43,927 bases of DNA. Origin: a virus. Position 1 is the stretch's first letter. Each line of letters starts with the position of its first letter. The position numbers and the translations under genes are program-made. The DNA lies in UHGV virus genome UHGV-1456322; one strand, 5' to 3'. A model generated the notes under the pieces. That model did not search any database. It saw only the letters and a program-made list of their open reading frames with translations, and had not been told where the DNA came from. This document shows, piece by piece, positions 1 through 43,927 of the stretch.

Positions 1-57
1 TAAGGTGAAAATGAAAACAAAAATCATAAGAATGCACGAAGGCACCAGGGGCGCGTA

Positions 58-390
58 TTACTGTTTGTTAACAGGCTCGAACACGTTACACTCAACAGTT
101 CTAGCTGCTGCGTTAAACGTAAAACCCCGAAGACCCATAACATCCACCAGATATCGGCACAAATCAAACACGTGCTTAGGTTCCCGGGTGTGGGTGCCGC
201 TTACTACGTACTGCTCAACCCTAACAGGTACAGCCTGCTTTAACATGGCCTCTGAGATGATGCGCAGAGCATTGGCTGTACTGTCCCCAGTGCAGCGTTT
301 GTGCCACACCCCTGTGCCGTACTCTACACCACCTTGGGTTATGGCCTCCATGCGGGTCATACCGGTTATAATGTTACGGATATCTTTCAT
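58..390 (-). CDS. hypothetical protein (~110 aa) downstream of capsid gene
   Basis: Minus ORF in track (58..405, TTG start); in-frame ATG at 388-390 preceded by GAGGAAA RBS; no catalytic motif recognised. Confidence 0.45.
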   Translation of the reverse strand: MKDIRNIITGMTRMEAITQGGVEYGTGVWHKRCTGDSTANALRIISEAMLKQAVPVRVEQYVVSGTHTREPKHVFDLCRYLVDVMGLRGFTFNAAARTVECNVFEPVNKQ

Positions 391-439
391 AGGTTTCCTC
401 ATCAAACGGAACTAGGCAGGTTCAATTGCCGTTAACTGT

Positions 440-622
440 TTACTCTTCCGCAGTATCAGCGGCTGCGTCAGCCGCCTTACGGGTTTTCTTGGTAGCCTTG
501 CGGCCAGATTCAACCGAAGCCACCTGGATGTTCTTCGCTACATCGGTGGCGGCCTTAACCGCCTCCCGCTGAGCTGCATTGGCCCGGAGAGTCTCCAGAC
601 CGAACGTAGCGATTACTGCCAT
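440..622 (-). CDS. hypothetical small protein (60 aa)
   Basis: Minus ORF with GGAGG RBS 6 nt upstream of ATG; follows capsid gene stop by 11 nt. Confidence 0.45.
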   Translation of the reverse strand: MAVIATFGLETLRANAAQREAVKAATDVAKNIQVASVESGRKATKKTRKAADAAADTAEE

Positions 623-633
623 TGAACCTCCAA

Positions 634-1653
634 TTAGGACTTGGTGGTGAAGGTGAACTTGGTCACTGCAGCGGTGTCCGGACGACGCAGACCGATGTTG
701 TACATTGCGTAGCAGTCCAGCACGTTGCTGAACTCTCGCTCATCATCCCAGATACGGGAGGTGAACGGCTTAGCCTCAACAGTCACCAGGGTCTTGGACT
801 TGCTGAAAGTCACCATACGGCACAGCGCGTCGTCAGGGGTGACGGCGTAAGCGGAGCCCAGCGGGTGCGTACCAGCAGCGGTCGGGAACTCGGTGCACTC
901 AACTACAGGCACACCGTTCATCTTCACTACACGTCGGTCTTTGTAACCATCATTGTTGGACGCGCCGAAGTCCAGGTTCAGGAGCTTCGGATGCTCCAGC
1001 AGACGCGAATAGGTATCGACGTCCACCAGGGTAATCATGTCCGCCAGCGGGGTCTTACGCTTGATGAGTTCGTCAATACCAGCCTTGTGGGCCAGGTTGA
1101 TGTTCATGGCGTTCGCCTCCATCTCAGCCTGGGTCAGCTGAGTGGCGGTGGTGGTACCCGGAACCAGGATAGCTGCGCCTACCTCGATACCGTCGTTGAA
1201 CGCCGGTTTCAGGTGCGCCGGCGCAACCCAGGAACGGCCCTTGATGAGCTGAATCAGGTGCGCCTGGTCGAAGACCTCTGCGAACTCAGAGCCGTTGTTC
1301 TGACCCATCTCGGTCAGGAAGTCCGGACCGGTCCAGTCATCCTGATAGTCAATCGGGTTACGGATATACAGCACCGTATCCACCACGATAATCATCTTAT
1401 CGTTACGGACCGGAGTGCTATCCAGCGCCTCACCGGAGCGACGACCTTTCACCGAGGAGGTGTTCAGTCGGTCAATACGGTAGGTGTTGGAACCGCTGAT
1501 AGAGCGCTGGCTGGAGAGGCCCAGGAATAGAGCCCGGTACTGGAAGCGGGTATCCACTTCGTTCTGGTACACTTCCAGGTGAACGTCTACGTCGGAGTCT
1601 GCGCCGCCCCAGTGCGGACGAGTCAGGTTGCCATTATAAATAGTGTTGGCCAT
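634..1653 (-). CDS. major capsid protein (T7 gp10-like)
   Basis: 339 aa, size and position after scaffold gene; sequence pattern resembles T7-group capsid proteins from memory; AAGGAAA RBS. Confidence 0.85.
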   Translation of the reverse strand: MANTIYNGNLTRPHWGGADSDVDVHLEVYQNEVDTRFQYRALFLGLSSQRSISGSNTYRIDRLNTSSVKGRRSGEALDSTPVRNDKMIIVVDTVLYIRNPIDYQDDWTGPDFLTEMGQNNGSEFAEVFDQAHLIQLIKGRSWVAPAHLKPAFNDGIEVGAAILVPGTTTATQLTQAEMEANAMNINLAHKAGIDELIKRKTPLADMITLVDVDTYSRLLEHPKLLNLDFGASNNDGYKDRRVVKMNGVPVVECTEFPTAAGTHPLGSAYAVTPDDALCRMVTFSKSKTLVTVEAKPFTSRIWDDEREFSNVLDCYAMYNIGLRRPDTAAVTKFTFTTKS

Positions 1654-1678
1654 GCTTTAGTTTCCTTTATAAATAAAA

Positions 1679-2521
1679 TTAAAGACCTACGCGCTTACCA
1701 GCTTCACGGCGTGCGAGCAAATCGTTATAACGTTGACTGAACTGTGGAGACGCCAAGCTACGGTTGCCCGCTTCCTGACGGAGTTTGGTATATTCTGCGC
1801 GGAATTCCGCAGCAGACAGTGCATTGTTGCTGGCCACGCCTCGTACCATTGGGTTCTGTGTCTTGATAAGACCCATATCCCGGCAGAAGCTTGCTACCAA
1901 CTCAGCGGCCTGCTTGAGCTCACCCGAGTTAGCGAGTACACGAGCTGCGTTACGCAGAGGTTCAGGGGCCTTGGAATTAAACAGCTGCGCTGCTACCTCC
2001 CAGTTCTCCTTACCGCCCACGATATCGTAAGCTTCTTGTACTGCTTTGGTGGCTTGACCAACCTGGTCTTCCAGGTACGCTTTAGCCAGCAACTCTGCAT
2101 AAGCAGCGTGCTCTCCGAAACGTTCCTTAATGAAGGCCGTATCGATTAGGTTAGGGTCCTGATACTCCAGGGCCTTACCAAGTGCCCGCACCATATCAGA
2201 GTCAGTTAACCCAGAGACTTTCTGCAACATAGCTACACCGGCATCAATCGTCGGGTTGCCTGTCTTAGCCAGCTCCTGGGGCTGCTCTTTAGCGCTATCG
2301 CCACCCTTATCCGGGGCCGCTTTTAGGGCTTCGATATCCAGAGGAATCTTAGCAGGGTCAGGGGAGTCTTTGCCCTGTTGCTGCTGGGTAGGGGTCTGTG
2401 CATCCTGCACGCCTTGATTGTTCGGGGCGCTAAGGGGAGCACCTAGGCCCGGAATCTTAGGGCCACCTTGGTTCTCTACCTGTGTAGTTTCTACGTTCTG
2501 ACCGTTTTCTACGTTATCCAT
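1679..2521 (-). CDS. capsid assembly scaffolding protein (T7 gp9-like)
   Basis: 280 aa acidic, Q/A-rich protein between portal and capsid genes; synteny. Confidence 0.7.
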   Translation of the reverse strand: MDNVENGQNVETTQVENQGGPKIPGLGAPLSAPNNQGVQDAQTPTQQQQGKDSPDPAKIPLDIEALKAAPDKGGDSAKEQPQELAKTGNPTIDAGVAMLQKVSGLTDSDMVRALGKALEYQDPNLIDTAFIKERFGEHAAYAELLAKAYLEDQVGQATKAVQEAYDIVGGKENWEVAAQLFNSKAPEPLRNAARVLANSGELKQAAELVASFCRDMGLIKTQNPMVRGVASNNALSAAEFRAEYTKLRQEAGNRSLASPQFSQRYNDLLARREAGKRVGL

Positions 2522-2535
2522 CTATGCCTCTGTTG

Positions 2536-4131
2536 TTAACTTGGTAATAAGCCCAGCTGCTTACCTGCTACTGTCGGGTCTGCTGCTGTCAAGCCCTGGA
2601 GTTGGTCCTGCGCCACACCCGCGGATACATCGGCAGACGCATCCTGAACCCGTTGCTTCTGCTGCAGCTGCTCTTCGGTGTACATGAACGGCTCGCTGAC
2701 GATGCCGTAGGCGTCGAAGTACCAATCTACGCACGCATCTTTGTTGAAGCGCGGAGTAATCTGCTCAAGCACCGGGATAGCCAGCTGCATGGATTGTGCC
2801 GCCTCTAACAGCTTGTCCGCCGCCGCGGCTTTAGCCAGTGCAGAAGTACCCACCGTAACGTTGATGTTCACTACACCTTCGCTGAGATAAAGCTTAAAGC
2901 GAGGATACACCAGTGCAGTATACAGGTACGCCAGCTTACGCAGCCAGGTGTCGCTCAGGATACTGAACCCACCGCCCATAGCGGCTTCCGCCTCTTTGGC
3001 ATTCTGGCGAATCTCGTAAGCCGTGACACGCTCACCTTGCCGTGAGTTACCGGTGTACATAAACGCACGAGACAGTTTCTGTTCGAGCATCTGAATGTTG
3101 CTGGCAATCCACTGAATCTTCTGGGCAGAGCCGCCCTCGTAAGCAGTGACTGGGGACTTGTTGTTCCCGTTGGAACCACCACCACCCACCTGCACAGCCT
3201 CGCCCGTCTCCGACGTTGCGAATTCGTCCACGTCCAGCCCGGAGCTTGCGTCAACCAGCGGAATTAACCGCGCAGACTCAACTTCGTAGTTAGTTAACGC
3301 TTCTGACAGCACTGATAATCTAGCGAAGTCCCCGGCGTAGTCCTCTACCAAGCCGCGTCCGTAGTGCTCACCGCTAACAAGGTTCCACACCAGCACGTTG
3401 TATGGAAGCTCCAGCTCAGGATAGGTGCTGCTGTCCCCAATGTGGTGTCCGTCTGCTTCTTGGTACACCTCGTAGCTTACTACCTCTACGCCTTCCTCTG
3501 TCCGCTTAACCTTGCGACAAGCGGCAGTGTAGATATCAACGTCGCCGTATGGGTCTTTGTCACGGTAGAAGGTGTTCTGGAAACTCTCTGGCAGGTCCTG
3601 GACGCTTGCGCGCTCTCTGATAATGAGTCGCAGGACGTTCCCGCTGCCATCCCTTCGAACGGTAAAGTTACGGACTGAGTAGACGATGGATTTACCTGTC
3701 CGCTCATCAATATACTCCAACGCGTTACCTGTAACCAGCAGCAGCTTCACAGCTTGCAACTTCGCAGCATAACCGTCTTTCTCAAATACTTTCTGTGACG
3801 CTGTGTTCTCGACCTCGGCCAGCTTAGATTCTGCTGTAGCTGCACTACCCAGCGAACTAATGAACTCGTCCAGGTCCGAACTCTTGGAGAACCGGAAGAA
3901 GCTAGCGCCTTGCGGGAACAGTGCGCCTACAATCTTAGTGGCTGCAGTGTTGACCAGCTGCGCTCCGGTGCTCTGGTAGTCACGCTCTAGCGGTCTGCGT
4001 CTACCGTCCAGGGAATCGTCCCGGGTAAAGATAGTGCTGAGTGTCCACTGCGCGAACTTCTCAGAGGCATCCAAGACGCCCGCGTCCTGGTCCTTCTTAA
4101 AGAGTTCTGCTAATGTTGCTTTTTGTTCCAA
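2536..4131 (-). CDS. portal (head-tail connector) protein (T7 gp8-like)
   Basis: 531 aa; contains GERVTAYEIR-type segment recalled from T7 gp8 (GERVTAEEIR); position upstream of scaffold/capsid. Confidence 0.8.
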   Translation of the reverse strand: MEQKATLAELFKKDQDAGVLDASEKFAQWTLSTIFTRDDSLDGRRRPLERDYQSTGAQLVNTAATKIVGALFPQGASFFRFSKSSDLDEFISSLGSAATAESKLAEVENTASQKVFEKDGYAAKLQAVKLLLVTGNALEYIDERTGKSIVYSVRNFTVRRDGSGNVLRLIIRERASVQDLPESFQNTFYRDKDPYGDVDIYTAACRKVKRTEEGVEVVSYEVYQEADGHHIGDSSTYPELELPYNVLVWNLVSGEHYGRGLVEDYAGDFARLSVLSEALTNYEVESARLIPLVDASSGLDVDEFATSETGEAVQVGGGGSNGNNKSPVTAYEGGSAQKIQWIASNIQMLEQKLSRAFMYTGNSRQGERVTAYEIRQNAKEAEAAMGGGFSILSDTWLRKLAYLYTALVYPRFKLYLSEGVVNINVTVGTSALAKAAAADKLLEAAQSMQLAIPVLEQITPRFNKDACVDWYFDAYGIVSEPFMYTEEQLQQKQRVQDASADVSAGVAQDQLQGLTAADPTVAGKQLGLLPS

Positions 4132-4140
4132 GCTACCCCC

Positions 4141-4404
4141 TTACAGGCCCAGAGGATTGCTCTGCCCTGCTTGTCGCCGTTTCTTCTGCTCAGACGTAAT
4201 TGCATCTGCAGATGCAGAGGCAGCCCCTGCAGGGTCAATCTCAGCAATATTATCTGCGGCGCTATTAGCCTCTAAGGCAGCCTGTTGTTTAGCTGCGCTG
4301 GCCTGTTGCTCTGCCAAGCGCTGCTGCGCCTCTAATCCTGCGTTGTCAGTAAGGCCCAGCATATCCGTGGCCTTGCCTAACAGTCTACCTAAACCACCAC
4401 TCAT
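4141..4404 (-). CDS. hypothetical protein (87 aa), Ala/Gln-rich
   Basis: Minus ORF between RNAP-proximal gene and portal; overlaps upstream gene by 4 nt. Confidence 0.45.
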   Translation of the reverse strand: MSGGLGRLLGKATDMLGLTDNAGLEAQQRLAEQQASAAKQQAALEANSAADNIAEIDPAGAASASADAITSEQKKRRQAGQSNPLGL

Positions 4405-4841
4405 TCTGACCTCACTAAATGATAAGTTGTTTTGTACGTGTTACTGGACGTGCTTCGGCTAATGGTGATACGCCCAGCGCGCATGCACTTGGCTATTGCG
4501 TGCAGGCCCTGCATAATCACAGACACTGCCGCGCCGTTGTCCGGTTTCAATACGAAGAAGTCTGTATACAGCACAGGCTCTACGTAATGACAGTCCTCTA
4601 CAGCCTCTGGGTAGTAGCTGACAGCACCGACTAAGTCGCCTTTGGAGTCATAGACTCCTAGTATATACTGTTTACCCAGTATACTTCCCAACACCCTCCA
4701 GTAGTGCTGCTCTGGAGCCAGGCCCCGACTAATGCCATGGCCCAGTTCGTGCAGTTGCTTCACTGCGTCTGTAACGTCGTCAGATTTATACAGAACCTTG
4801 AGAGTGTAGTCGGAAGTTTTACTAGTGTGTTTTAACTTCAT
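4401..4841 (-). CDS. hypothetical protein (146 aa)
   Basis: Minus ORF; ATG immediately preceded by AGGAGTAGGA that is part of the repeated promoter-like motif. Confidence 0.5.
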   Translation of the reverse strand: MKLKHTSKTSDYTLKVLYKSDDVTDAVKQLHELGHGISRGLAPEQHYWRVLGSILGKQYILGVYDSKGDLVGAVSYYPEAVEDCHYVEPVLYTDFFVLKPDNGAAVSVIMQGLHAIAKCMRAGRITISRSTSSNTYKTTYHLVRSE

Positions 4842-4860
4842 TCCTACTCCTGTAACATTA
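4840..4860 (-). promoter_or_regulatory. candidate phage RNAP promoter (minus-strand TAATGTTACAGGAGTAGGA)
   Basis: Exact 16-mer CCTACTCCTGTAACAT (plus strand) shared with 26339-26354 and 36777-36792; located just downstream of RNAP gene. Confidence 0.45.
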
Positions 4861-4865
4861 AATTT

Positions 4866-7334
4866 TTAGCAGAAGAAGAACGGGGATTCTAGCACTTGCC
4901 GGATGTCCAAAGTGCCCACCTCTGGCATGTCCAGGTCCGTCAAGTCTGCCCCGGCTGCTGCCGCTGCCCGAGTAATATCGCCAAGCAGGTCATTCTCTTC
5001 ATATAGACGCACAAACTGCTCACGGATGTGCCTATGCATAGTGTCGACGTCAGCTGCGTGAGTAGCCAGCGAGTCGTGAATAGGCACAATGTCCAACCCC
5101 TCCGCAGCGCAGAGCACCATCATCAAGTGCGTACTGTCCAGGCTATGCACAAAGTTTGGGGCAATCCCGGAGGCTGCCTTGCGCTTGTTACAAGTTTTGA
5201 AGTCCCGGTTGTGTACCAGTACCGCTGACAGGTTCATGCAGTCAATACGTACACGCACTTCTTCACGCTGCGTGTAACGGTTCATTACGAGCCCGCCCAG
5301 CGGCGTATACCACTGCAGGTGCTGGCTTGCCGGTACGCGTCTAGCGAGATTCTGCAAGTACCCCATAACTGCCGCAGCAGCGGGGTTTGCCTCCTCTATA
5401 GCGGCGCGCATACGCGGTGCCAGGTAGCACGACAGGTTCCACAGACTGTTAGTATCGGTACCCTCGTATCCCTCAGCGCAAGCGCCTTCAAAGATGTAGT
5501 CGCTGCAGCTACGCACCGTGGCGCTGTAGAAGTAGGTCATACTTGGGTGCTTGGTCATGCTGCGGGTGATTTCGTTCTCTCTCCAGTACGTGCTCTGGAT
5601 AACGAAATCCTCCTTGTCCAGGTCCAGTATCACCTTCTCATCCGTGCGGCGCTTCACGTCCATGTACAGGTCCGCTTTCTTGTCGTTACCTTCCCAGTAC
5701 AGGTTCGTCAGACGACCGCCTACAGGGTCTCTCAGGAGCGCTGAGAGGTGCTGTCCACCTGAGTTTGTGGCGTCCATAGCAACCGGAGTTCTGGAGATGT
5801 ACTCTTCTGGGCACGGAGAATCCAGAGCAGCCACCAGGTCGAGCACTGCTGCCAAGAAACACCACGGTGAATCGGCCTGCTTAAAAGCGTCCGAATCAAA
5901 TGGATTCTCTGCAACTGAGCGGACAACTGCCATATTTTTATCCACCCAATCTGCGCGGTCTTCGAATAGGGTTTTGTCATAACCAAAGCAAGTGGCGACA
6001 TGCACTTTAAGCCAGAACAACCCTCTCTCTCCAAGAGGTTTACCTCTACCGAATTCCAGCAGAGCCTTCTGCAAATCAGAACCCTGCGGGTGCAACGAGG
6101 ACTTGAAGTACAGGCGGTAGCGCCAGTCCACACAAGTCGGGAAGTACAGGGCTTTCTCATCTTTGAATTCCTCTGCCATCTCCAACGTAGTCAGAAGGCT
6201 GCGTAGTTGCGACACACGCTTACGGTCAGCACTGTACCACAGGGACATACGCGTCTTCCACTCACCGAAGCGGTCCAGTTCTTCTTCGGTGTAGTTCTCT
6301 TTTGGTACACCATCCAAGTACCACTCAGGCTTCGGCTCCGGTATTGAGCGGGGCATACCTATCCCAATACCCAGGGCCCGTGCTTCTTGCACCAGTTCCA
6401 GTATGCGCTTATTAATACGGTATGGGGTTTCCTGTGCCTTATTAAGCGCCTTCTTGATGCCATCCGCGGACTTAAATGCTTCCGCCACTTCACGCAGCCT
6501 GGAGCGGTCGATGTGCGAGTTATGGTACGTACCGCGGTTGTCGATAGGAGTAAGGTACCCACCATCCCACATAGTGGTGTGCTGCACCGGGGGGACCAGC
6601 ATAGGCGGCTTCATCGTTACAGTGTCGGCAGATTCCACCAGTTTCTGGAAGGCCCCCATAACGTCATCAGCCGGGTAGAGCATGCTCAGGTTCCCGCTAC
6701 CTGTCTTCCACTGGAACAAGCCAGTCTCAAACACCGCGGCACACAGCAGACGCCCTACGGAGATGTTCTGGGCATTGGTCCAAGGCTCGTGCCCATAGTG
6801 CACATTCTCGGCACTGGCACGGAGCGTACGCAGGATGTGCGTAGGGGACTTCGTACGGCGCTCTGTGAGATACTCATATACTCGGTCCATGTACGCTGGG
6901 GCTACGTTGCGTAACTGCAGAGCCAGTAGCTCTGACTGCACGTTCCGGCCCAGTGCGGACATTACCGCCTGCGCAGTCTGGCGGCGACTAGCAGACTCGC
7001 CGGGGGCGACGCTAAACGCTTCAAACATTGTGCACAGGCTCAGTGTGGTCAGGACATCCAAGGGGACTAAGCGCAGGAACCGGCGGTACTTACCACCAAT
7101 GCCCGGGACTTTGACGTTTCGCATCTCGTCGATAGCGGCAGCAGCCACCTCATATGCCGAGGTGAGCATACGCTGCGTCATCGGCAGGTTCATAATCCCG
7201 CCGTTCTGCAATGCGTCCGTAATCAGCTTACGTGCCCGCTCGATTCCGCGAATCTTATAGGTCTCTTCGAGCTCCAGCTGGCGTTTCACCAGTGCTTCCT
7301 CTGGTACTACAACCGTATTCAGGGCGCTAATCAT
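4866..7334 (-). CDS. DNA-directed RNA polymerase, single-subunit T7-like
   Basis: 822 aa; palm motifs DATNSGGQH (motif A-like) and PIHDSL (motif C HDS); size typical of T7/phiKMV RNAPs. Confidence 0.95.
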   Translation of the reverse strand: MISALNTVVVPEEALVKRQLELEETYKIRGIERARKLITDALQNGGIMNLPMTQRMLTSAYEVAAAAIDEMRNVKVPGIGGKYRRFLRLVPLDVLTTLSLCTMFEAFSVAPGESASRRQTAQAVMSALGRNVQSELLALQLRNVAPAYMDRVYEYLTERRTKSPTHILRTLRASAENVHYGHEPWTNAQNISVGRLLCAAVFETGLFQWKTGSGNLSMLYPADDVMGAFQKLVESADTVTMKPPMLVPPVQHTTMWDGGYLTPIDNRGTYHNSHIDRSRLREVAEAFKSADGIKKALNKAQETPYRINKRILELVQEARALGIGIGMPRSIPEPKPEWYLDGVPKENYTEEELDRFGEWKTRMSLWYSADRKRVSQLRSLLTTLEMAEEFKDEKALYFPTCVDWRYRLYFKSSLHPQGSDLQKALLEFGRGKPLGERGLFWLKVHVATCFGYDKTLFEDRADWVDKNMAVVRSVAENPFDSDAFKQADSPWCFLAAVLDLVAALDSPCPEEYISRTPVAMDATNSGGQHLSALLRDPVGGRLTNLYWEGNDKKADLYMDVKRRTDEKVILDLDKEDFVIQSTYWRENEITRSMTKHPSMTYFYSATVRSCSDYIFEGACAEGYEGTDTNSLWNLSCYLAPRMRAAIEEANPAAAAVMGYLQNLARRVPASQHLQWYTPLGGLVMNRYTQREEVRVRIDCMNLSAVLVHNRDFKTCNKRKAASGIAPNFVHSLDSTHLMMVLCAAEGLDIVPIHDSLATHAADVDTMHRHIREQFVRLYEENDLLGDITRAAAAAGADLTDLDMPEVGTLDIRQVLESPFFFC

Positions 7335-7475
7335 AGGCGCTTAGTCTCCTTGGTTATGTCCGGTACTTCTAACTACTGATTGCGACTTACCCAGAGATTG
7401 TACATCTCCAGGTAGTCTTTAGCGGCGCGTTCGTCTCCCCGCTCTACTGCTTTCTACCACACCCCGTGGCACCAC

Positions 7476-7937
7476 TCACTTGGCGTCAATGCACTTACCT
7501 CTGTGTTGCTCGTATAGTTCTGAGTACTTGTCGGACTTGGCAATGTCTTGTTCCAGCTTATCCTTGTTCCCGGCGCGCAGTCTGTACTTGAGCCGGTTCC
7601 CCAGGCAGTATCCGTAGAACTGCTCTTTCGTCATACTGCGTGCAATCACCTCAATTGCCTCCAGGCCCGGGAAGAACTGATAGTGTTTGGGTGAATTTAC
7701 TGCGTCTGGAGCTTTGGGCGTACTTTCCTGAATGCTTGATATGCTGACTACCTCAAAGTGGCAAGGGTCCCACAGATGGCCGTTACAACCATCAAGGATT
7801 ACGCCCCCATCAAGCACCGCTGTAATGGTGAACGAGTCACCATAAGCCACACGTAGCCCCATGCAGAACTCTGCCCAATCTAGCGTGCGGTATTGTGCCC
7901 AACGCCTCACCACATCCCCAACCTTGACTTTGCTCAT
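7476..7937 (-). CDS. hypothetical protein with DUF3310-like C-terminal region
   Basis: 153 aa; C-terminal SPKHYQ...IEVI...LGNRLKYRLR pattern resembles DUF3310 as recalled; not verified. Confidence 0.5.
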   Translation of the reverse strand: MSKVKVGDVVRRWAQYRTLDWAEFCMGLRVAYGDSFTITAVLDGGVILDGCNGHLWDPCHFEVVSISSIQESTPKAPDAVNSPKHYQFFPGLEAIEVIARSMTKEQFYGYCLGNRLKYRLRAGNKDKLEQDIAKSDKYSELYEQHRGKCIDAK

Positions 7938-8356
7938 TTAATAGTCTCCCGTGCTTTGCGTCGTGCCCGGGCCTTGCGGGCCTTGAGCTTCTGTACCTGT
8001 GCCAATTCTTCCGGCGACTTGTGCGTATAGTATAGCATATCCGTGGGTTCACGGTCTAAGTAATCGGCGACCCTGCGTAGAGATTCAGCAATAGCCCCAG
8101 AAGATTGCATGCTACCAACAATCCAGCGCCCAGCGGCAGATGCCACTTTGCCTTCCCCTCCATTGCACGAGCGATGAAGAGCACCCCGAATACGCCCAGT
8201 AATATGATCGTGGTCAACGACAATAGAATCACCAGTTACCCCCTTGATTGTGAAGTCCAAAGGTTTGCCACAAAGGGGGCATATGCCCCCCTGGTCTTTG
8301 GCAAGCTTAATAGCAACAGAGCGAATCTGTGCGCGGGTTATTTTACGCAGTGCCAT
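7934..8356 (-). CDS. recombination endonuclease VII-like (Holliday junction resolvase)
   Basis: 140 aa; CPLCGK ... VVDHDHITGRIRGALHRSCNGGEG matches Endo VII zinc/His-Me finger signature (T4 gp49 family). Confidence 0.8.
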   Translation of the reverse strand: MALRKITRAQIRSVAIKLAKDQGGICPLCGKPLDFTIKGVTGDSIVVDHDHITGRIRGALHRSCNGGEGKVASAAGRWIVGSMQSSGAIAESLRRVADYLDREPTDMLYYTHKSPEELAQVQKLKARKARARRKARETIK

Positions 8357-8745
8357 GTAATCCCTCTTAACATACGATACACTGCACTGTGGGCCATACC
8401 TAGACGTCTAGCTATATCGTTGCTACCCCATTCCCGGTCCCCGGGAATGTGTATTTGCCGCAGATAACGCACCGTACCTTCGTTCAAACGTGAGCGACCG
8501 CTGCCGGAGCCCTTTGCTGCTTTGCTTTTGTGGGTCCCTCCCTGCAAGTGCTCGGGGTTAATGCAGCGAGGATTTCCACAGGTGTGCTGTACTACCTCAG
8601 GCCACTCCCCTGTGTGCTCATAGTGTGCTTTCCTGTGTGCGGTTGTAGATTGGCGTTTACCATCAATAAGAACCCACGCGGATAGGAACCCAGTATTTGG
8701 CCACCCCTTTCGCCCGTGGTCTATACAAGGTGTGCTCACTCCCAT
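8338..8745 (-). CDS. HNH endonuclease (paralog 1)
   Basis: 135 aa; CIDHG ... HTCGNPRCINPEHL HNH motif; paralogous to 13145-13579 and 16355-16795. Confidence 0.85.
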   Translation of the reverse strand: MGVSTPCIDHGRKGWPNTGFLSAWVLIDGKRQSTTAHRKAHYEHTGEWPEVVQHTCGNPRCINPEHLQGGTHKSKAAKGSGSGRSRLNEGTVRYLRQIHIPGDREWGSNDIARRLGMAHSAVYRMLRGITWHCVK

Positions 8746-8939
8746 ACCTGAATCTCCCCCACTACATCCAGCATAGCATTGTCGTGAATGAGAGAATCCA
8801 AATGCTCAACCGTTCTTCGATGTGTTTTGGGTGCTCGTTCACGCAGCGCATCCAGAATAGTTTCAAGTTCATCGTGTTTCCCCTCGTAGTATAACTCAAT
8901 CGCCCGCAGGCTCATCTCCTTCGCAGACATCTTCGCCAT
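8736..8939 (-). CDS. hypothetical protein (67 aa)
   Basis: Track ORF 8736..9008 trimmed to in-frame ATG with AGGAG RBS; overlaps exonuclease 3-prime end. Confidence 0.35.
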   Translation of the reverse strand: MAKMSAKEMSLRAIELYYEGKHDELETILDALRERAPKTHRRTVEHLDSLIHDNAMLDVVGEIQVWE

Positions 8940-9864
8940 TGTCTGGGTGCTCCTGTATCCACTGTATGTGCTGTTTATGGTACTCGTGCAGAGAATGCAC
9001 CCAGTCACGCAGACTGGGAGTAGTCAACAGTGACATCAGATACAGGTACGCTGAATCTGATTGGGAGCGCCTCAGCCACAGGCATTCTGCCTCTGCGAGT
9101 ACGTCTTGGTTGTTTCGAGCATAGGCCGCTACAACGAATTCTGCGGCGTCCTGCTCTGAGGTAATAGGGTTGATAGCATCAAAGGCCGTTCGCTTCCCAC
9201 AGAGCTTTCCATCAAGCAATGTGATGCCTTTGACGTTATCTGCGTCATCTCCTGCTAGCATTTGCCACCAGAAGAACTTAGTGCCATGCGCTCGTACCGG
9301 CATAGCCTGGGTATCATCCCACTTAATCCAGCCGAATGGGTTATCCAAGGCAGGCCACACGGTTCCGGTAGGGATATCGAACCGAGCCATAGGGCTGAGC
9401 CAAGAATCCTTGTCCTGTGACATCAGGATTCCCCGGCCCCCGAAGCTGTACGAATCCATTACAAATAGGTCGTCGGCCTCAAAGTAGTCACTGCTTACCA
9501 CTTGTATGCCATGCTCAGAATACTGGTCCGGGTTCTCAATCAGGTGCCGCTTCAACGGTGCCTTGAGTGGCAGCTCCTGACGCTTATTGCGGTTCCCTTG
9601 GTACGGCTTAGCCGTAGGCAGGTGCCAGCGCAGGCACTTAGCACACCCCGTAGGCGTCAGATACGCCACTGCTTCTGAGCAGCCGACCAGGAACATGTCC
9701 TCAAGCACCAGCTGATAGAAGCGGCGTATCGCGGTATCCAAACGTTTCACTGTAGCAGCAGATTTATAAACTGTGAAATCCGCGTCGTACAGCAGAATCT
9801 TCCCAGAGTTCTGCGGAGCTAACTGCTCCCCGAGCTGGGACAAGTCAACCCCGTTGATAATCAT
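8896..9864 (-). CDS. 5-prime to 3-prime exonuclease (T7 gp6-like, FEN family)
   Basis: 322 aa; acidic metal-binding motifs YFEADD and AGDDADN typical of FEN/5-3 exonucleases. Confidence 0.85.
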   Translation of the reverse strand: MIINGVDLSQLGEQLAPQNSGKILLYDADFTVYKSAATVKRLDTAIRRFYQLVLEDMFLVGCSEAVAYLTPTGCAKCLRWHLPTAKPYQGNRNKRQELPLKAPLKRHLIENPDQYSEHGIQVVSSDYFEADDLFVMDSYSFGGRGILMSQDKDSWLSPMARFDIPTGTVWPALDNPFGWIKWDDTQAMPVRAHGTKFFWWQMLAGDDADNVKGITLLDGKLCGKRTAFDAINPITSEQDAAEFVVAAYARNNQDVLAEAECLWLRRSQSDSAYLYLMSLLTTPSLRDWVHSLHEYHKQHIQWIQEHPDNGEDVCEGDEPAGD

Positions 9865-9866
9865 CA

Positions 9867-10025
9867 GACCCCCGTAACCTTCTTGGTCAACTTACGCGCC
9901 CAGGATTCCCAGGCGGTCAGCGCCTGACTGTTTTCTACCTTCTCAAATGCCCAGCACAGGATAGCTACAAGCACTAGCGGGGCTACTAACAGGAAGTAAA
10001 ATGATTTTGCAAAGAAGTTACGCAT
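9867..10025 (-). CDS. small membrane protein (52 aa), below ORF-track cutoff
   Basis: Hand-translated: MRNFFAKSFYFLLVAPLVLVAILCWAFEKVENSQALTAWESWARKLTKKVTGV; one TM helix; stop overlaps exonuclease ATG (ATGA-type coupling). Confidence 0.4.
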
Positions 10026-10028
10026 TCT

Positions 10029-10190
10029 CTACACCTTTAAGTGGTCAGTAAAAGCATGGATTGCACGGCCCAGCATAGCCACGCCCTTAGAGCCTCCGGC
10101 TACACTGAGCGCCAGCGCCATTAGCATCAAGCTGATTGCAAGTAGTACCAGTGCTGGGACTGAAATTATGTAGGATATAAATTTACGCAT
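10029..10190 (-). CDS. small membrane protein (53 aa), below ORF-track cutoff
   Basis: Hand-translated: MRKFISYIISVPALVLLAISLMLMALALSVAGGSKGVAMLGRAIHAFTDHLKV; ATG overlaps TAA of upstream gene (TAATG). Confidence 0.4.
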   Translation of the reverse strand: MRKFISYIISVPALVLLAISLMLMALALSVAGGSKGVAMLGRAIHAFTDHLKV

Positions 10191-10564
10191 TATATACCCT
10201 CCAGTTCAGATAGCACCAACACGGTGCCAAGCATGTCCCCGATTACTTCCGTGGTACGCAGGCTCTGGTCTACGTCGTAGATGCAGGAACCAATCTCCGC
10301 CAGCCCGATGCTTAGGGTACCCACAATGCGGATAAGCACTAGGTCATCACCCCGTAACTTATCGGCATGTGCCGCCAGGTCATTGTGCTCCTTGAAGGCG
10401 GTAGCAGCCAACTCCAGGTCCATGCCGTACAGGGCCGCCAGCTTGTCCAGAGCATCGTACACAGCGCCGAGCTGGTCACCGTTGTCGAAACCTTGAACGG
10501 CGCTACAGTTCACGTAACCTACAGCCAGAACCAGTTTCTTGTATGCGTCTAGTACTTTGTCCAT
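10190..10564 (-). CDS. hypothetical protein (124 aa)
   Basis: Minus ORF in tightly packed gene chain; no motif recognised. Confidence 0.5.
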   Translation of the reverse strand: MDKVLDAYKKLVLAVGYVNCSAVQGFDNGDQLGAVYDALDKLAALYGMDLELAATAFKEHNDLAAHADKLRGDDLVLIRIVGTLSIGLAEIGSCIYDVDQSLRTTEVIGDMLGTVLVLSELEGI

Positions 10565-10842
10565 TAGTCAAATCCTTTCAATTTGTGTTTTGAAATGAAA
10601 TTGTGGGCTTTGGTCTCAGTGGCCGTAGCCTCTGCACCCAGGGCGTATGCACGGCGTCGGGACTTGGCGCACTGGCGAGTCAAGTGATAGCGGTGTGCGC
10701 TAATCTCGGCACCCAGAAGGCTTGCCCTGTGTGCGTGAGAATTAGCTGCCCAGTGCCAGTCGTTTGCTCGCTTCTGCAAACGCTGTGCACGCAGAAGCAG
10801 AAACACAGCGTACTGTTCTTTGGCCCATGTGATTATGCGCAT
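10564..10842 (-). CDS. hypothetical protein (92 aa), basic
   Basis: GGAGG RBS 6 nt upstream of ATG; stop of upstream gene abuts start. Confidence 0.5.
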   Translation of the reverse strand: MRIITWAKEQYAVFLLLRAQRLQKRANDWHWAANSHAHRASLLGAEISAHRYHLTRQCAKSRRRAYALGAEATATETKAHNFISKHKLKGFD

Positions 10843-11097
10843 TTATACCTCCAGGAAGTTAGCTACCTCACCACGCTTAGCGCGCAGGTTATCAGCATGG
10901 CAAGCGCACGCCTCGGCTAACTCTTTGCTATGCTTGGATGCCTCTACGCGCGCCTCGGATTGAGCGGCCAGACGCACTGCGTCGTCTGCGAATTTAACTG
11001 ACAACTGCTCGTTAAACTGCGCTTTGGCATCGGCGCGTTTAGCTTCTGCTGTGTAGGCCGCGCTCAGGAGTTTGATGAGAATCTTGATGATGTTCAT
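10843..11097 (-). CDS. hypothetical protein (84 aa)
   Basis: AGAGGAAG RBS; preceded by GC-rich palindrome GGCCCCTAGGAGGGGCC (11111-11127). Confidence 0.5.
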   Translation of the reverse strand: MNIIKILIKLLSAAYTAEAKRADAKAQFNEQLSVKFADDAVRLAAQSEARVEASKHSKELAEACACHADNLRAKRGEVANFLEV

Positions 11098-11150
11098 AGG
11101 CTTCCTCTAAGGCCCCTAGGAGGGGCCGTATTAGTTTAGGTTAGGGTTGA

Positions 11151-11939
11151 TTAGGCTTGAGGTGCGGCGGGTGCTGCTGGCGCCACAGGGGCTGCAGGGG
11201 CCACTGGTGCAGCCGGGGCTGCGGGTGCCTGCATAGCTGCCGGACTAGGAACCGAGCCAGCGTTCAGCAGAATATCCAGAGCACTGCCAGGGAAGTCTAC
11301 AGCCTTGTACATATCCTCCTGAATCCAGTTCTTGCTCTTACCATCGTCGAAGGTGCCTTCGATGTGCAGGCTATCCCAGGTCTCTTTGGTTGGGTTGTTC
11401 CACAGGAACAGCTTAATCTCAGAGGCATCCATGGCAGGCATCTTGATAGGCTCGCCAGTGTTCGGGTCGAATTTCGGAATCGGGCGGATACCGGACAGGT
11501 CCACGATGTTGGACTTCTTGCCCGCGGCGCTGGTGTGCTCATCAATCGGGAAGGTGAAGGCCTGGCCCAGACGCTGTGCTGCATGCTTGATGCTATTGTC
11601 GTAGTTGAGCTTGTCGAAGAACTTCTTGAAGCCTGCGCGCTCAAAGTTACTGATAGCCATCGGGAACGGGCGGATACGCTTCACTTCGCCGTTAGGACCG
11701 AACACTACAATGCCGATGCGTACGTTAGCTACTGCGGGCTTACCGGTCGGCTTGCCACCCTTAGTCGGCAGGCGCTTACCGATTTCTACGTACTCGGTGA
11801 AGTAGCCGTAGTATTCACCCTTCGGCAGCAGCGCGTCCTCATACGCACCGCCCTGTGCGGTTTCAGTCATATCAACATCCTGCGTTTCAATAGCAGCCGC
11901 TACCAGGGAGTTCAGGGTGTCCAGTGCATTCATCGTCAT
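11151..11939 (-). CDS. hypothetical protein (262 aa) with C-terminal Pro/Ala repeat tail
   Basis: GAGGAAG RBS; C-terminus APAAPAAPVAPAAPVAPAAPAAPQA low-complexity repeat. Confidence 0.55.
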   Translation of the reverse strand: MTMNALDTLNSLVAAAIETQDVDMTETAQGGAYEDALLPKGEYYGYFTEYVEIGKRLPTKGGKPTGKPAVANVRIGIVVFGPNGEVKRIRPFPMAISNFERAGFKKFFDKLNYDNSIKHAAQRLGQAFTFPIDEHTSAAGKKSNIVDLSGIRPIPKFDPNTGEPIKMPAMDASEIKLFLWNNPTKETWDSLHIEGTFDDGKSKNWIQEDMYKAVDFPGSALDILLNAGSVPSPAAMQAPAAPAAPVAPAAPVAPAAPAAPQA

Positions 11940-11990
11940 ATAATTACTTCCTCGTTTAGTTTGAATGATATTTACGTGCAGATGCGGGGC

Positions 11991-12161
11991 TTAGCGGGAG
12001 GCAGCTTTGAGGGCCACCGCCAAGAACACTAGGATTACGCCGAGTGCCATAGGCCCCCAGAACGGGAGCAGCACCCACAACCAGGACCAGGCGATAACGC
12101 CAGTCAGTTTCAAGGTTACAAAGATAAGGCCCAGTACAGAACAGATTCCCATTTTCATCAT
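11991..12161 (-). CDS. small membrane protein (~56 aa, two predicted TM helices)
   Basis: Track ORF 11991..12209 trimmed to ATG with GAGGTG RBS; hydrophobic throughout. Confidence 0.4.
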   Translation of the reverse strand: MMKMGICSVLGLIFVTLKLTGVIAWSWLWVLLPFWGPMALGVILVFLAVALKAASR

Positions 12162-12171
12162 CACCTCTGTG

Positions 12172-13152
12172 TTATTTAGTACGACCAACCCAACGACCAT
12201 CGTCGTCAAGCAGCATCGGAATTAACTGCGGGCAACCCTCGGTGATTACCAGCACACCCAGGATTGGTTTCTTGCGGGTGAGTCTGCCGTAAGCAAAGGC
12301 CATGCTCTTACGGTCAATCAGACACCCAGCATACGCACCAAAGTACAAAGCTGTTGAGCTAGCTGCATATTGCACCTCAAAGCGACCATGTTCGTGACCA
12401 AGGACAAGGCTGGTTCTTTCGTGGCTAGCGTTGAGCATGAAGTCACCCGACACTTGATGCTGGAATCTAACCGGGCCAAGTGGGGTATTGAGTACCCACG
12501 CGTCAGCCCAAGACCACGCCGGGGCACCATGTTCAGGGAAAAGTATATCTCGGTACTTCTTGATGAATTGCACTGGTAGCCCGTGAGCTTTCGCCCTGCG
12601 GTAAACCAGACTGCCGTGATTGGAATCGCAAACCAATAGGTTCGGGAACAGTTCATGTAGCTCCTCCAGTACGAGCTTAGCTTTCTCCAGCTCCACCCCG
12701 GCGCTATCCAGGTTCGGGTTACTTTCGTGGAATGATATAGCGTGGCCGTCCGTCTCGTCGCCTACCTGTACAACCATGTCCGGACAGTAGGCGTCTCGCA
12801 CAGATTCTAAGAAGGCCATAGCATCTACGTGCGTATAGGGGGCATGCAAATCCCCAACTACGAGAATACGGTGGCACACTTCCGGCACGAAGGTTTTGCC
12901 GATGTCATCAGTGGGACTGGGCTGTATGAGCTTTAGTGCCTCCTTCATGTGTGATATTGCCTTGCCCTTGCTCCCAGCGTGGTCTAGGAATATGCTGCGC
13001 CAGTACTTCACCATCTGTCGATACACCACCGGCTCGTCCAGTCCCGCCAGCTTATTATAGGCGGCAGCAGCATCCACGTTAGAGCTGTGCTTGCTCAAGA
13101 TATCTACGTGTTGCTCTTTGGTGAATAGCTTTATTGTGTTTAACTTAGGCAT
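12172..13152 (-). CDS. calcineurin-like metallophosphoesterase
   Basis: 326 aa; motifs VVGDLHAPY (D-x-H), VGDETDGH (GDxxD), DSNHGS, GHEH consistent with metallophosphatase fold. Confidence 0.75.
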   Translation of the reverse strand: MPKLNTIKLFTKEQHVDILSKHSSNVDAAAAYNKLAGLDEPVVYRQMVKYWRSIFLDHAGSKGKAISHMKEALKLIQPSPTDDIGKTFVPEVCHRILVVGDLHAPYTHVDAMAFLESVRDAYCPDMVVQVGDETDGHAISFHESNPNLDSAGVELEKAKLVLEELHELFPNLLVCDSNHGSLVYRRAKAHGLPVQFIKKYRDILFPEHGAPAWSWADAWVLNTPLGPVRFQHQVSGDFMLNASHERTSLVLGHEHGRFEVQYAASSTALYFGAYAGCLIDRKSMAFAYGRLTRKKPILGVLVITEGCPQLIPMLLDDDGRWVGRTK

Positions 13153-13579
13153 TCCAGCTCCTGTTACTTATTACGTCACTAATTACATGTACACCTACAC
13201 CGTACTTATTAGCAAAGTGTTGCCGCATACCTTTCTTGTATGGGATATAGTTATCCCTGATATCCTGCACAGCATCCCAAGTTAACTGCGCTTTTGGGTT
13301 CCTATCCCCACGCACATCTGGGTTCCTTCCGCGCTCTGCGCGGTCCCGCATATTATCCATATGCGTTCCCAATACTAAGTGCTTAGGGTTAATGCACCTG
13401 GGGTTATCGCAGGTATGTCTAACAGACAGGCCAGCCAGCGCCCTTATATCCAGCCCGTTATGCTCAGCACACACCACCCGATGCAGCAGCTCCAATCGCC
13501 TGGTCGGCTTATACCATGCCCGGCGGTATCCGTTCTTGTTAAGGCATTTGTTATACCCGTGGTCAATACACATCGACAT
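13145..13579 (-). CDS. HNH endonuclease (paralog 2)
   Basis: 144 aa; CIDHG ... HTCDNPRCINPKHL motif. Confidence 0.85.
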   Translation of the reverse strand: MSMCIDHGYNKCLNKNGYRRAWYKPTRRLELLHRVVCAEHNGLDIRALAGLSVRHTCDNPRCINPKHLVLGTHMDNMRDRAERGRNPDVRGDRNPKAQLTWDAVQDIRDNYIPYKKGMRQHFANKYGVGVHVISDVISNRSWNA

Positions 13580-13597
13580 TCGGTATCCTCTTGTGTT

Positions 13598-13618
13598 GTT
13601 CCTACTCGTATCACATTA
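13598..13618 (-). promoter_or_regulatory. degenerate copy of candidate phage promoter motif (TAATGTGATACGAGTAGGA)
   Basis: 16/19 ungapped identity to the motif at 4842-4860; lies about 20 nt upstream of HNH gene start in AT-rich intergenic region. Confidence 0.3.
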
Positions 13619-13621
13619 ATT

Positions 13622-13684
13622 CTCTGTGAATCACAGAATCAAGCTAGAGTCAACAAATAATTTTATTTAATTATTTAGTTGACC
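13622..13684. promoter_or_regulatory. AT-rich intergenic region with two palindromes (TCTGTGAATCACAGA; GTCAACAAATAATT...AATTATTTAGTTGAC)
   Basis: Perfect 7-1-7 inverted repeat at 13623-13637 and ~35-bp imperfect palindrome at 13649-13683 in a 161-bp non-coding gap after the DNA polymerase module. Confidence 0.4.
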
Positions 13685-13740
13685 CCAGTGTATTTCCATG
13701 CTACCCTAACCCCCTACACCACCCAAGGGTCCACCTATCA

Positions 13741-13962
13741 CTATTCCACGATAAGCTTGTACTCCCCCGGGAAGAAGGTAACACCATCCCCCGGTCTACT
13801 TACTACTAGTCCAGGATAACTTAGTTCTATCTCCCCAGTAACCGGGTCGAAGAACATAACCGTGTGCCTCGTACCCGGGGCGAAGTATGCTGCATACCGC
13901 GGGTCTATCGGCTCAGGCCCCAGGTCCATCAACTCCACAACACTGCCAGACTTTATACTCAT
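13741..13962 (-). CDS. hypothetical protein (73 aa)
   Basis: Start overlaps DNA polymerase stop (ATGA). Confidence 0.45.
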   Translation of the reverse strand: MSIKSGSVVELMDLGPEPIDPRYAAYFAPGTRHTVMFFDPVTGEIELSYPGLVVSRPGDGVTFFPGEYKLIVE

Positions 13963-16373: not shown

Positions 16374-16795
16374 GGGTACTCTCCTCTTAGCACTTTGTAT
16401 ATGACGTTAGTGTCTACGCCGTACTCGCGGGCCAGATGGGTAACGCCATAAATCCTCGGCGTATGCTTGGCACAGATATCTTCACAGTCTTTAGGAGTTA
16501 GGCGTTGGCGGCTAGGCACCCGCTTAGCACTACGGCCGCGCTCTGCTCGGTCCTTGTTGTTATCTGCTAGGGTTCCAGGTATTAGGTGCTCTGGGTTGAT
16601 GCACCGTGGGTTGTCGCAAGTGTGCCTGACAACTACTCCATCTAGAGCTTTAAGCGGCACCCCTAACTTCTCCGCCAGCACCAGCCTGTGCAGGTGTACG
16701 CAACGACTGCGAACTCCGGGTTTAGCTACCAAGGCGTAGCCTTCTGGGGATAGGCTGCGCGAACGTCCGTGGTCGATACACTCACTCATTTCCAT
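16355..16795 (-). CDS. HNH endonuclease (paralog 3)
   Basis: 146 aa; CIDHG ... HTCDNPRCINPEHL; sits between helicase and DNA polymerase, 3-prime end overlaps polymerase start. Confidence 0.85.
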   Translation of the reverse strand: MEMSECIDHGRSRSLSPEGYALVAKPGVRSRCVHLHRLVLAEKLGVPLKALDGVVVRHTCDNPRCINPEHLIPGTLADNNKDRAERGRSAKRVPSRQRLTPKDCEDICAKHTPRIYGVTHLAREYGVDTNVIYKVLRGEYPCQQPV

Positions 16796-16851
16796 TTAGC
16801 CCTCCTATACCATGTACCTACATAGCGCCCTCAGAGAAGGCGCTAGGGAAG

Positions 16852-18132
16852 TCACCGGTTAATCTGGCCCTCGTCAAAGCGGCAACGACCCGGCTCGAAT
16901 CCCACCTCGAATTGCAGTAGCGACTCTTTACCAGACAGTGCCATCTTGTTCTTCGGAGTACTGATACCACGGACGTTTTGCATGTGCGGCTGCTCGTTTC
17001 TGTCCAAGCATCCCATCATAATAGCCAAGTCCAGGGCACCCTGTACGCCAATCTTGCTCTGCTTCATAGCGGTGAGCGGCGGGAACAGCATGTTGTAACC
17101 TTCGAGTGAAAGCTGCATAGTGCCTACAATAGCGCAGTCGTTCTCGCACCCAAGTATGCGCAGCTCCTGCCATTTCGCCTCGAGGTTCTGGTGCTCGGTC
17201 TCCATAGTGCCGCCACGGATGTTCGCCACCATGTCGATGATGATTACCGCAGGGCGCATCTCCTCCATGAGCGTGGATATCTGCGCCATCGTCAAGGAGT
17301 GCGCAGCCTTAACACGAATCCGGTCAGCCCTGCCTACTTTCTTGAGGTAGGCTGGCACGAACTCTTGCTTACTGTGCCTGTCCTTAATCTCTGCCAGAGT
17401 CCAGTGCAGCGCCGCTTGATATACCCTCGGCACCGTACGCGTCGCCGGACCCTCGTTAACCAGCCAGAGAATCGGGCGGCCCCCGTATACTTCCGGCTGC
17501 TGCTGCATCTGCTCAGCAAAGTCCACAGCAATAGCAGCAAGCAGGCTAGTTTTACCAGAGTCCACAGGGGCAGCCACTGCGATGCAGTCCCCGCCGCGTA
17601 GGCCCCGGATGTTGCTAGAGAGTTGCTCGAACACGCCCAGTTTAAGACCGCCGCTCTCGTCAGTCGCGGCAAGTATTTCGTCAACACTACCGCTCTCCCA
17701 TTCAAGCAGCGAATCATGCACCGCAGCGCCGTCACCGTACTTGCGCTGTAGGTGCTTCATTTCCAGCAGGTAATCAATCTCCTCACCGTCTTGGTAGCGC
17801 TGCGTCAGCGCTGCTACCTCCCCGCTGTAGGCCAGCTCATTCAGGGTCTGGACAATCCCCACCACAGAATCCTGCGGCACGGCTTGTACTCCCCGCATAA
17901 GCTCGTCCATGATTACCCGCTCTTCCCGGGATAGGTGCCCCGCCCGGAGGTTGAGCATGCTCTGCATCGCATCCCATCGCACCTCCTGGTGCTCCGGGTA
18001 CGTGTTCCAGTACAGCCCCACCCAGTCCAGAAGGTTCGACGTATCCGGCGCAAGCATCGACTTAGGAATCTGCTCTCGCAGTCGGTTCCAAACCTTCTGC
18101 GTGCACATTGCCTTAACAACTATTAGGTCCAA
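16852..18132 (-). CDS. DNA helicase (DnaB-like, T7 gp4 helicase-domain-like)
   Basis: 426 aa; Walker A AAPVDSGKTS; position after primase. Confidence 0.85.
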   Translation of the reverse strand: MDLIVVKAMCTQKVWNRLREQIPKSMLAPDTSNLLDWVGLYWNTYPEHQEVRWDAMQSMLNLRAGHLSREERVIMDELMRGVQAVPQDSVVGIVQTLNELAYSGEVAALTQRYQDGEEIDYLLEMKHLQRKYGDGAAVHDSLLEWESGSVDEILAATDESGGLKLGVFEQLSSNIRGLRGGDCIAVAAPVDSGKTSLLAAIAVDFAEQMQQQPEVYGGRPILWLVNEGPATRTVPRVYQAALHWTLAEIKDRHSKQEFVPAYLKKVGRADRIRVKAAHSLTMAQISTLMEEMRPAVIIIDMVANIRGGTMETEHQNLEAKWQELRILGCENDCAIVGTMQLSLEGYNMLFPPLTAMKQSKIGVQGALDLAIMMGCLDRNEQPHMQNVRGISTPKNKMALSGKESLLQFEVGFEPGRCRFDEGQINR

Positions 18133-18913: not shown

Positions 18914-19082
18914 CGGTAGCGTTACCCTCTGTGAGTAAAATTCGCTCCACTTTAACCACCGTAGTTAAATTGGTTAAATCATCTTTTATAGTGGCGCGAC
19001 CATCCTTTACGTTAATTAAGGTATAGGTTCTGTCCGTGAACAGAAAGTTCTCTGGGCTATTTTCTAGAGCTTTTACTTTCAT
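18894..19082 (-). CDS. hypothetical protein (62 aa)
   Basis: Minus ORF overlapping primase start by 20 nt. Confidence 0.35.
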   Translation of the reverse strand: MKVKALENSPENFLFTDRTYTLINVKDGRATIKDDLTNLTTVVKVERILLTEGNATDGPALA

Positions 19083-19540: not shown

Positions 19541-19542
19541 AA

Positions 19543-43896: not shown

Positions 43897-43927
43897 TCCT
43901 AGTATGCCTCACTTGCTTAGAAGAAAA

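Follow-up and report, generated by a model that had tools for sequence, protein, structure and literature searches.

Three exact copies of a short sequence in the 43,927-nucleotide viral genome UHGV-1456322 (the whole stretch of DNA analyzed, here called the window) are very probably, at roughly 0.93, strong promoters of the phage-encoded, T7-type single-subunit RNA polymerase (RNAP) of a KP34-like Klebsiella podovirus. The original prediction, made from the sequence alone, had proposed a candidate phage RNAP promoter, and this proposal is supported, in that the copies are identical to the strong promoters of Klebsiella phage KP34 that were mapped by 5'-RACE and in vitro transcription. Because of this identity, the motif is an already known feature, described by Lu et al. 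in 2019 and predicted genome-wide in 2025, though the sequence-only inference was right.

Identity with the strong promoters of KP34

Whole-genome comparison with KP34 (NC_013649, placed in the genus Drulisvirus in its record) showed the window to be a KP34-like genome that is circularly permuted and given as its reverse complement, with KP34 nucleotide 1 at window position 26830. A 4-kb piece of the window matched approximately 250 phage records, mostly of Klebsiella phages, with 97% identity in the best match. The homolog of the 216-bp terminal repeat of KP34 is present in a single copy (26632 to 26830), and thus the window looks like a linear genome, directly repeated at its ends, that was circularized in assembly. 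Within this homolog, at about 26770, nine G occur in a row. The features required for the description of the promoters are as follows.

4401-4841, minus strand: first late gene, with its ATG at 4841
4845-4860, minus strand: predicted strong promoter S1 (TAATGTTACAGGAGTA), positions -16 to -1; sequence identical to KP34 22197-22212; G at 4844 predicted as +1
4866-7334, minus strand: single-subunit RNAP gene, 822 aa; 95% identity to KP34 RNAP; matches T7 RNAP structures with an E value of about 1e-65
4894-4913, minus strand: homolog of the KP34 weak promoter W (ACTTTGGACATCCGGCAAGT), with one mismatch, which is synonymous; inside the 3' end of the RNAP gene
26341-26356, minus strand: predicted strong promoter S2 (TGATGTTACAGGAGTA); identical to KP34 475-490; predicted +1 at 26340
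33839-37537, minus strand: gp16-like internal virion protein gene, 1232 aa; corresponds to KP34 gp48
36779-36794, minus strand: S1 copy in the gp16-like gene; exact match to KP34 33721-33736; predicted +1 at 36778

A mismatch-tolerant search located the repeated 16-mer, CCTACTCCTGTAACAT, exactly three times, at 4843-4858, 26339-26354, and 36777-36792 (plus-strand coordinates), with the count, places, and orientation that had been claimed. Its minus-strand, gene-sense reading is ATGTTACAGGAGTAGG. The claim that the repetition exceeds chance was borne out, with about 2e-5 extra exact copies of a given 16-mer expected in the window. Five matches with three or fewer mismatches were found versus 0.42 expected, and none of 100 shuffles gave five; those with three mismatches are at 13601-13616 and 9408-9423. 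As had also been claimed, the copies are all in the gene-sense orientation: every copy with four or fewer mismatches is on the minus strand, as are all long ORFs, and a scan of the window at this threshold found no antisense copy of the promoter. Four-mismatch copies at 9410, 18726, 23344, and 33962 were set aside, approximately 1.7 per strand being expected by chance, and are inside coding sequence or otherwise unremarkable.

With their flanks, the gene-sense sequences are TAATGTTACAGGAGTA followed by GGAATG at 4845-4860 and by GGAGAG at 36779-36794, TGATGTTACAGGAGTA followed by GGAGGG at 26341-26356, and, at a fourth, degenerate copy designated V, TAATGTGATACGAGTA followed by GGAACA at 13603-13618. 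The flanks of the copies are unrelated to each other. V corresponds to the 16/19 copy of the original prediction, which is real (TAATGTGATACGAGTAGGA versus TAATGTTACAGGAGTAGGA), and the copies had been placed correctly after the RNAP gene, after the DNA polymerase, in the terminus-like region, and inside the gp16-like gene. Two details required correction. The span of the 16-mer is slightly displaced, running from -14 to +2 when the functional promoter runs from -16 to -1. In addition, the full minus-strand string that had been given, TAATGTTACAGGAGTAGGAGA, fits the gp16 copy only; the other two copies read ...GTAGGAATG and TGATG...GTAGGAGGG.

A full-text literature search for the motif returned one paper, that of Lu et al. 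(Front Microbiol 2019, PMC6834552), in which 5'-RACE placed initiation in KP34 at the G directly after TAATGTTACAGGAGTA, mostly at nt 22213, and purified KP34 RNAP gave run-off transcription from T(A/G)ATGTTACAGGAGTA. The KP34 promoters are TAATGTTACAGGAGTA at 22197-22212 and 33721-33736 and TGATGTTACAGGAGTA at 475-490 (PMC6834552), coordinates that were confirmed in the KP34 record. Both forms, S1 and S2, were transcribed with similar run-off efficiency, and the 14-mer that they share was much weaker (PMC6834552). A paper on the EM1 RNAP added nothing on the KP34 promoters.

The strong promoters of the window are identical to S1 and S2 of KP34 at three syntenic positions and in the same orientation. 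The copies map one-to-one onto KP34 22197, 33721, and 475, all are on the coding strand, and T(A/G)ATGTTACAGGAGTA is in each case followed by G at +1 (two copies of TAATG... and one of TGATG..., each followed by GG). The same genome encodes the cognate KP34-like single-subunit RNAP, which has no differences from KP34 RNAP across residues 661-760, the specificity-loop segment included. Nothing of substance differs between KP34 and the window, which is distinguished by HNH insertions, approximately 7 to 15% nucleotide divergence, and the one synonymous mismatch in W. The function of the window promoters was transferred from the 95%-identical KP34 enzyme and the identical DNA. In the PhageProm report (Nucleic Acids Res 2025, PMC11880802), 467 KP34-like promoters are predicted in 135 genomes, about 3.5 per genome; these belong to the same repeated-motif class as those of the window, in genomes carrying KP34-like RNAPs, and the covariation analysis of RNAP and promoter in that work covers T7-like pairs only.

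The copy in the gp16-like gene is 743 nt into the gene and is read in frame as ..A-N-V-T-G-V.., with third-codon positions at -16, -13, -10, -7, -4, -1, and +3. Two of these seven positions vary, versus 82 of 99 in the flanking 150 nt on either side (Fisher p = 0.004); the two are a concerted switch at -7 (synonymous ACA/ACC) and one singleton. This conservation of synonymous sites shows that the DNA sequence itself is under selection. In KP34, the weak promoter W (ACTTTGGACATCCGTCAAGT, at 22144-22163 inside the RNAP gene) gave weak and imprecise initiation in vitro (PMC6834552). Its homolog varies freely at synonymous positions among relatives (ACT/ACC, TTG/CTG, CGT/CGG/CGA), and thus any constraint on W at the DNA level, beyond coding, looks weak.

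S2 is approximately 475 nt from the left genome end and is not within the terminal repeat, whose homolog at 26632-26830 adjoins it. The noncoding DNA 3' of S2 (26140-26340, minus strand) contains dense short direct repeats (ACTAGTCC..., CACTACGTT..., and TATTGGCTA...), which recall the repeat arrays at the genome ends of T7-group phages. No sigma-70 promoter (-35 and -10 hexamers with 16- to 18-nt spacing) was found at the S copies within positions 1-20000.

Covariation of the promoters with the RNAP specificity loop

Relatives were gathered from IMG/VR as 65 loci by RNAP homology and as 48 loci by the N-terminus of the gp16-like protein. Because the former were picked by RNAP homology, they were not selected for the motif. 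The promoter behind the RNAP gene has three forms among these relatives, TAATGTTACAGGAGTA, TAATGTTACCGGAGTA, and TGAAGTTACCGGAGTA, and the gp16 copy has either A or C at -7. When the loci were paired by contig, the post-RNAP and gp16 copies of 43 genomes agreed at -7 without exception (A/A in 19, C/C in 24, none discordant). The base at -7 of the left-end copy also agreed with that of the other copies in every overlapping genome, three of the C type included.

The polymerase feature that accompanies this switch is as follows.

5217-5228, minus strand: RNAP codons 703 to 706 (SAVL), co-varying with promoter base -7

Residues 703-706 are SAVL in 28 of 28 genomes with A at -7 and T-I-(M/L/V)-R in 30 of 30 with C, these counts being of sequences rather than of independent events. 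When the 58 RNAP sequences were divided by promoter type, columns 703, 704, and 706 were the only ones among 822 that discriminated perfectly, and column 705 did so nearly. In a HMMER alignment, residues 703-706 align with Q758-I761 in the specificity loop of T7 RNAP, and R694, R696, and N701 of the window enzyme pair with T7 R746, N748, and R756. In the T7 promoter complex, the residues that pair with these positions are the ones with which the specificity loop reads bases.

The A and C types are interleaved on an RNAP tree built with the 703-706 block removed, and at least six changes are needed on this tree, which recombination makes approximate. The association between -7 and residues 703-706 is thus not a simple split between two clades, and the interleaving indicates that the specificity block and all promoter copies stay matched despite mosaicism. 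S1 is only about 360 bp from codons 703-706, and physical linkage could therefore contribute in its case. These results support a model in which the central part of the promoter would be read by the RNAP specificity loop.

The third form, TGAAGTTACCGGAGTA, differs by T to A at -13 and has G at -15. It occupies the post-RNAP site of many C-type genomes (at about 12474 in L010, L012, L021, L023, L025, L027, L029, L030, L038, L039, L046, L053, and L054; also, displaced by a post-RNAP insertion, in L031 and L057) and in at least one genome the left-end site as well; L134 is a further locus with this form. The gp16 copy in these genomes remains TAATGTTACC; positions -15 to -13 form an Asn codon there, so that coding constraint may hold this sequence. 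In many relatives an insertion of approximately 350 bp separates the RNAP stop codon from S1 (L006-L009, L011, L013, L014, L020, L043, L050, and L058), and S1 is still directly before the first late gene.

It is very improbable that the motif is another kind of DNA site, such as a signal for packaging or replication, a hotspot of recombination, or the target of a homing endonuclease. One copy is near a genome end, and HNH homing-endonuclease genes are inserted beside promoter sites in both the window and its relatives, as might suit such a site. However, these insertions adjoin the motif and leave it intact, this sequence has been shown to act as a promoter in vitro (PMC6834552), and of the genes tested, only the RNAP gene, in its specificity loop, varies in step with the promoter.

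Even less probable is the reuse before genes of a translation-initiation signal, consisting of a Shine-Dalgarno AGGAG and its spacing context. AGGAG in S1 is 5 nt upstream of the ATG at 4841 and is a possible ribosome-binding site (RBS) on read-through from the RNAP gene, but neither of the remaining exact copies has a suitably spaced start codon (one is in-frame coding sequence and the other noncoding left-end DNA), all 16 bp are conserved, beyond the purine run, transcripts from the mapped +1 exclude AGGAG (PMC6834552), and the covariation with the RNAP loop would be unexplained. S1 begins 5 nt past the RNAP stop codon, and its predicted +1 is 3 nt before the ATG (GGA-ATG), so that the first late gene would be nearly leaderless on S1's own transcript and AGGAG can presumably serve as its RBS only on read-through RNA.

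The least probable alternative is a role in RNA folding or processing, like that of the conserved RNase III hairpins that T7-group phages carry between genes: folds of 106 nt around the four sites had z-scores of -0.2 to -1.5, which are not significant, and the folds differ between sites, with the motif paired differently each time in unrelated flanks.

A fourth, degenerate copy upstream of the RNAP gene

The fourth copy, V, is located among the following features.

13145-13579, minus strand: HNH_3 ORF, directly after V
13585-13676, minus strand: conserved intergenic block containing V; almost no variation in the columns when 53 distinct sequences were aligned
13603-13618, minus strand: V (TAATGTGATACGAGTA); agrees with the promoter at 13/16 positions and differs at -10, -8, and -6; identical in KP34 12983-12998
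13959-16373, minus strand: family-A DNA polymerase ORF

The intergenic block follows the DNA polymerase gene and is upstream of the genes between DNA polymerase and RNAP. With 13 of 16 positions, V departs from the KP34-type consensus, and it does not follow the A/C switch, keeping A at -7 in genomes in which the RNAP and the promoters have switched to C. It is essentially invariant in approximately 55 relatives and exact in every covering IMG/VR relative but one (TGATG...), and the strong promoters vary in genomes where V stays invariant. A full-text literature search for the sequence of V returned no paper with a match. The block of about 90 bp contains, in order, an AT-rich tract, TTGACT (13648-13653), 11 nt, CTGTGA (13631-13636), V, and the RBS of the downstream gene; past the block, relatives diverge abruptly.

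In more distant relatives the promoter locations are retained and the sequences differ, the putative promoters being repeats anchored behind the RNAP genes. The locus L056 has GAGACACGTTRTAGAGRGACA twice behind its RNAP gene (12452-12472 and 12536-12556), Vibrio phage M3 (L068) has AAAGTCCCACG[AT]ACAGG behind the RNAP gene and inside the gp16-like gene (19040 and 30732), and ACAGTAGGTTGTAGAGGTTA occurs in Providencia phage PSTRCR_114 both behind the RNAP gene and at the left end. The putative promoter of Salmonella phage KKP 3828 is GAGGTTGCACGTATAGATACA. KKP 3828 also has 13 nt in common between its post-RNAP region and its gp16-like gene, which were put down to chance or to coding similarity, since they are in another part of the protein. 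Among the putative promoters of distant relatives are the copies at 803 and 21002 in L069 (reverse complement) and at 1 and 21610 in L067.

At the site syntenic with V, L056 has GTGACACGTTATAGAGAAC, which reproduces exactly the 15-nt core of its own promoter; an AT-rich tract, TTGACA, 11 nt, and CTGTGA come before it. Vibrio phage M3 has AAAGAGTCACGTACAGG, which matches its own motif at 13 of 17 positions, with the same upstream layout. Salmonella phage KKP 3828 keeps TTGACA-N11-CTATGA, and the sequence after this element, tried as a V equivalent, is unlike its putative promoter; nothing convincing was found when an equivalent was sought in PSTRCR_114. TTGAC(A/T)-N11-CTGTGA thus precedes the V-type variant by approximately 12 to 15 nt in three divergent lineages (13631-13653 on the minus strand of the window, about 4382-4410 in L056, and about 11555-11580 in Vibrio phage M3). 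This element may be bound by a regulator, act as an unusual host promoter, or be related to an origin. The only sigma-70 candidate at or around V was a weak TGGAAA-N17-AATAAT match, which is upstream of the AT-rich tract, is a single hit, no more than shuffles gave, and coincides with a site annotated as 'promoter' in phage KpV74.

V has about an even chance of being a working promoter of the phage RNAP, in which case it would be weaker or differently regulated, possibly as a middle promoter. With equal weight, V may not be a phage-polymerase promoter, and may instead be a decayed relic or part of a region bound by host RNAP or a regulator that resembles a promoter. The mismatches at -10, -8, and -6 are in or beside the zone read by the specificity loop, A is retained at -7 even in C-switched genomes, the whole 90-bp block is equally conserved, including TTGACT with its upstream AT-rich tract, and V is absent from the promoters listed by Lu et al. 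(PMC6834552), all of which favor a relic or host site. However, a relic would not stay invariant in approximately 55 genomes whose true promoters vary, and no acceptable sigma-70 -10 hexamer follows TTGAC(A/T) in any of these lineages. Furthermore, in two distant lineages this site is occupied by a variant of the lineage's own promoter motif, which is unrelated.

A more specific version of the promoter reading is tentative, at somewhat less than even odds. V may be a functional promoter of a distinct, undescribed class, in a block common to KP34-like, L056-like, and Vibrio VP93-like phages, and would then transcribe the middle genes, of which the RNAP gene is the last, in a feed-forward loop. 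Because V ignores the switch at -7, it would be read differently from the strong promoters. Separately, and equally tentatively, RNAP residues 703-706 (SAVL/TIMR) may be a natural, portable switch for base -7 (A/C).

Late transcription and comparison with other phages

In the proposed mechanism, the RNAP (4866-7334) would bind the 16-bp duplex T(A/G)ATGTTACAGGAGTA, as was shown for KP34 and is transferred here. By analogy with T7, the specificity loop would read the central bases and the last few base pairs would be melted, and RNA would start at the G immediately downstream, as it does in KP34. The positions of the copies suggest that S1 initiates late transcription, reading the structural genes that come immediately after the RNAP gene, that the distal late genes (tail fibre, terminase, lysis cassette, and tailspike) are served by a fresh start at the gp16-internal copy, and that S2 sends phage-polymerase transcripts into the early region. 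A role of S2 in replication, packaging, or DNA entry is speculation.

43855-43899, minus strand: homolog of the rho-independent terminator annotated in KP34 downstream of the capsid gene; syntenic with KP34 26623-26660

This terminator homolog is a hairpin followed by an expanded run of 17 T, with a stem that is weaker than that of KP34 and contains two mismatches, and it is likely a partial stop for S1 transcripts. Approximately 470 bp between the capsid-side genes and the terminator have no KP34 counterpart; this segment spans the coordinate origin of the window and includes an ORF at 58-405.

The promoters of T7, class III and class II (TAATACGACTCACTATAGGGAGA), are likewise short duplexes for a single-subunit RNAP with 5' TAAT, TA at -2/-1, and initiation at G, and the specificity loop of the window RNAP is homologous to T7 residues 739-770. 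The original prediction of a T7-family architecture holds in these respects, but the likeness does not extend to sequence: alignment with the T7 consensus at +1 gave 5/22 identities, alignment at the 5' end gave 10/22, and the 23-bp consensus of the T7/T3/SP6 type is not present in register with +1, so that the likeness is architectural only. The promoter of the window extends 16 nt upstream, compared with 17 in T7, and there are three to four copies per genome, compared with approximately 17 in T7. Because the RNAP gene is at the end of the middle region, unlike in T7, the promoters would serve mainly late genes. The position of S2 resembles that of T7 phiOL.

In LUZ19 and other phiKMV-like phages, promoters are few and lie after the RNAP gene, within the structural region, and close to the left end (PMC10914365). 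The sequence of the LUZ19/phiKMV promoter, GgtTATGTCACacACAnnGG (Putzeys et al. 2024, PMC10914365), is unrelated to that of the window. LUZ19 also differs in having two tandem copies after the RNAP gene and an antisense copy at the left end (PMC10914365), whereas all copies in the window are in the sense orientation. The LUZ19 promoter P006 was considered as a parallel of V and rejected, as it lies in the early region and not after the DNA polymerase.

The three phage-polymerase promoters, the weak-promoter homolog, and the terminator homolog are a gain in annotation that defines the late transcription units of this genome; apart from annotation, published knowledge is confirmed. The leads that are left are the conserved fourth site, V, and the match found in nature between the specificity block and base -7. 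SAVL with A at -7 and TIMR with C at -7 are a natural pair that could be of interest for the engineering of orthogonal RNAP-promoter combinations. The fourth site, conserved in position and divergent in sequence upstream of the polymerase gene, could be of interest for studies of transcription in phiKMV-like phages; if V is functional, the genes leading to the RNAP gene itself would be transcribed from it.
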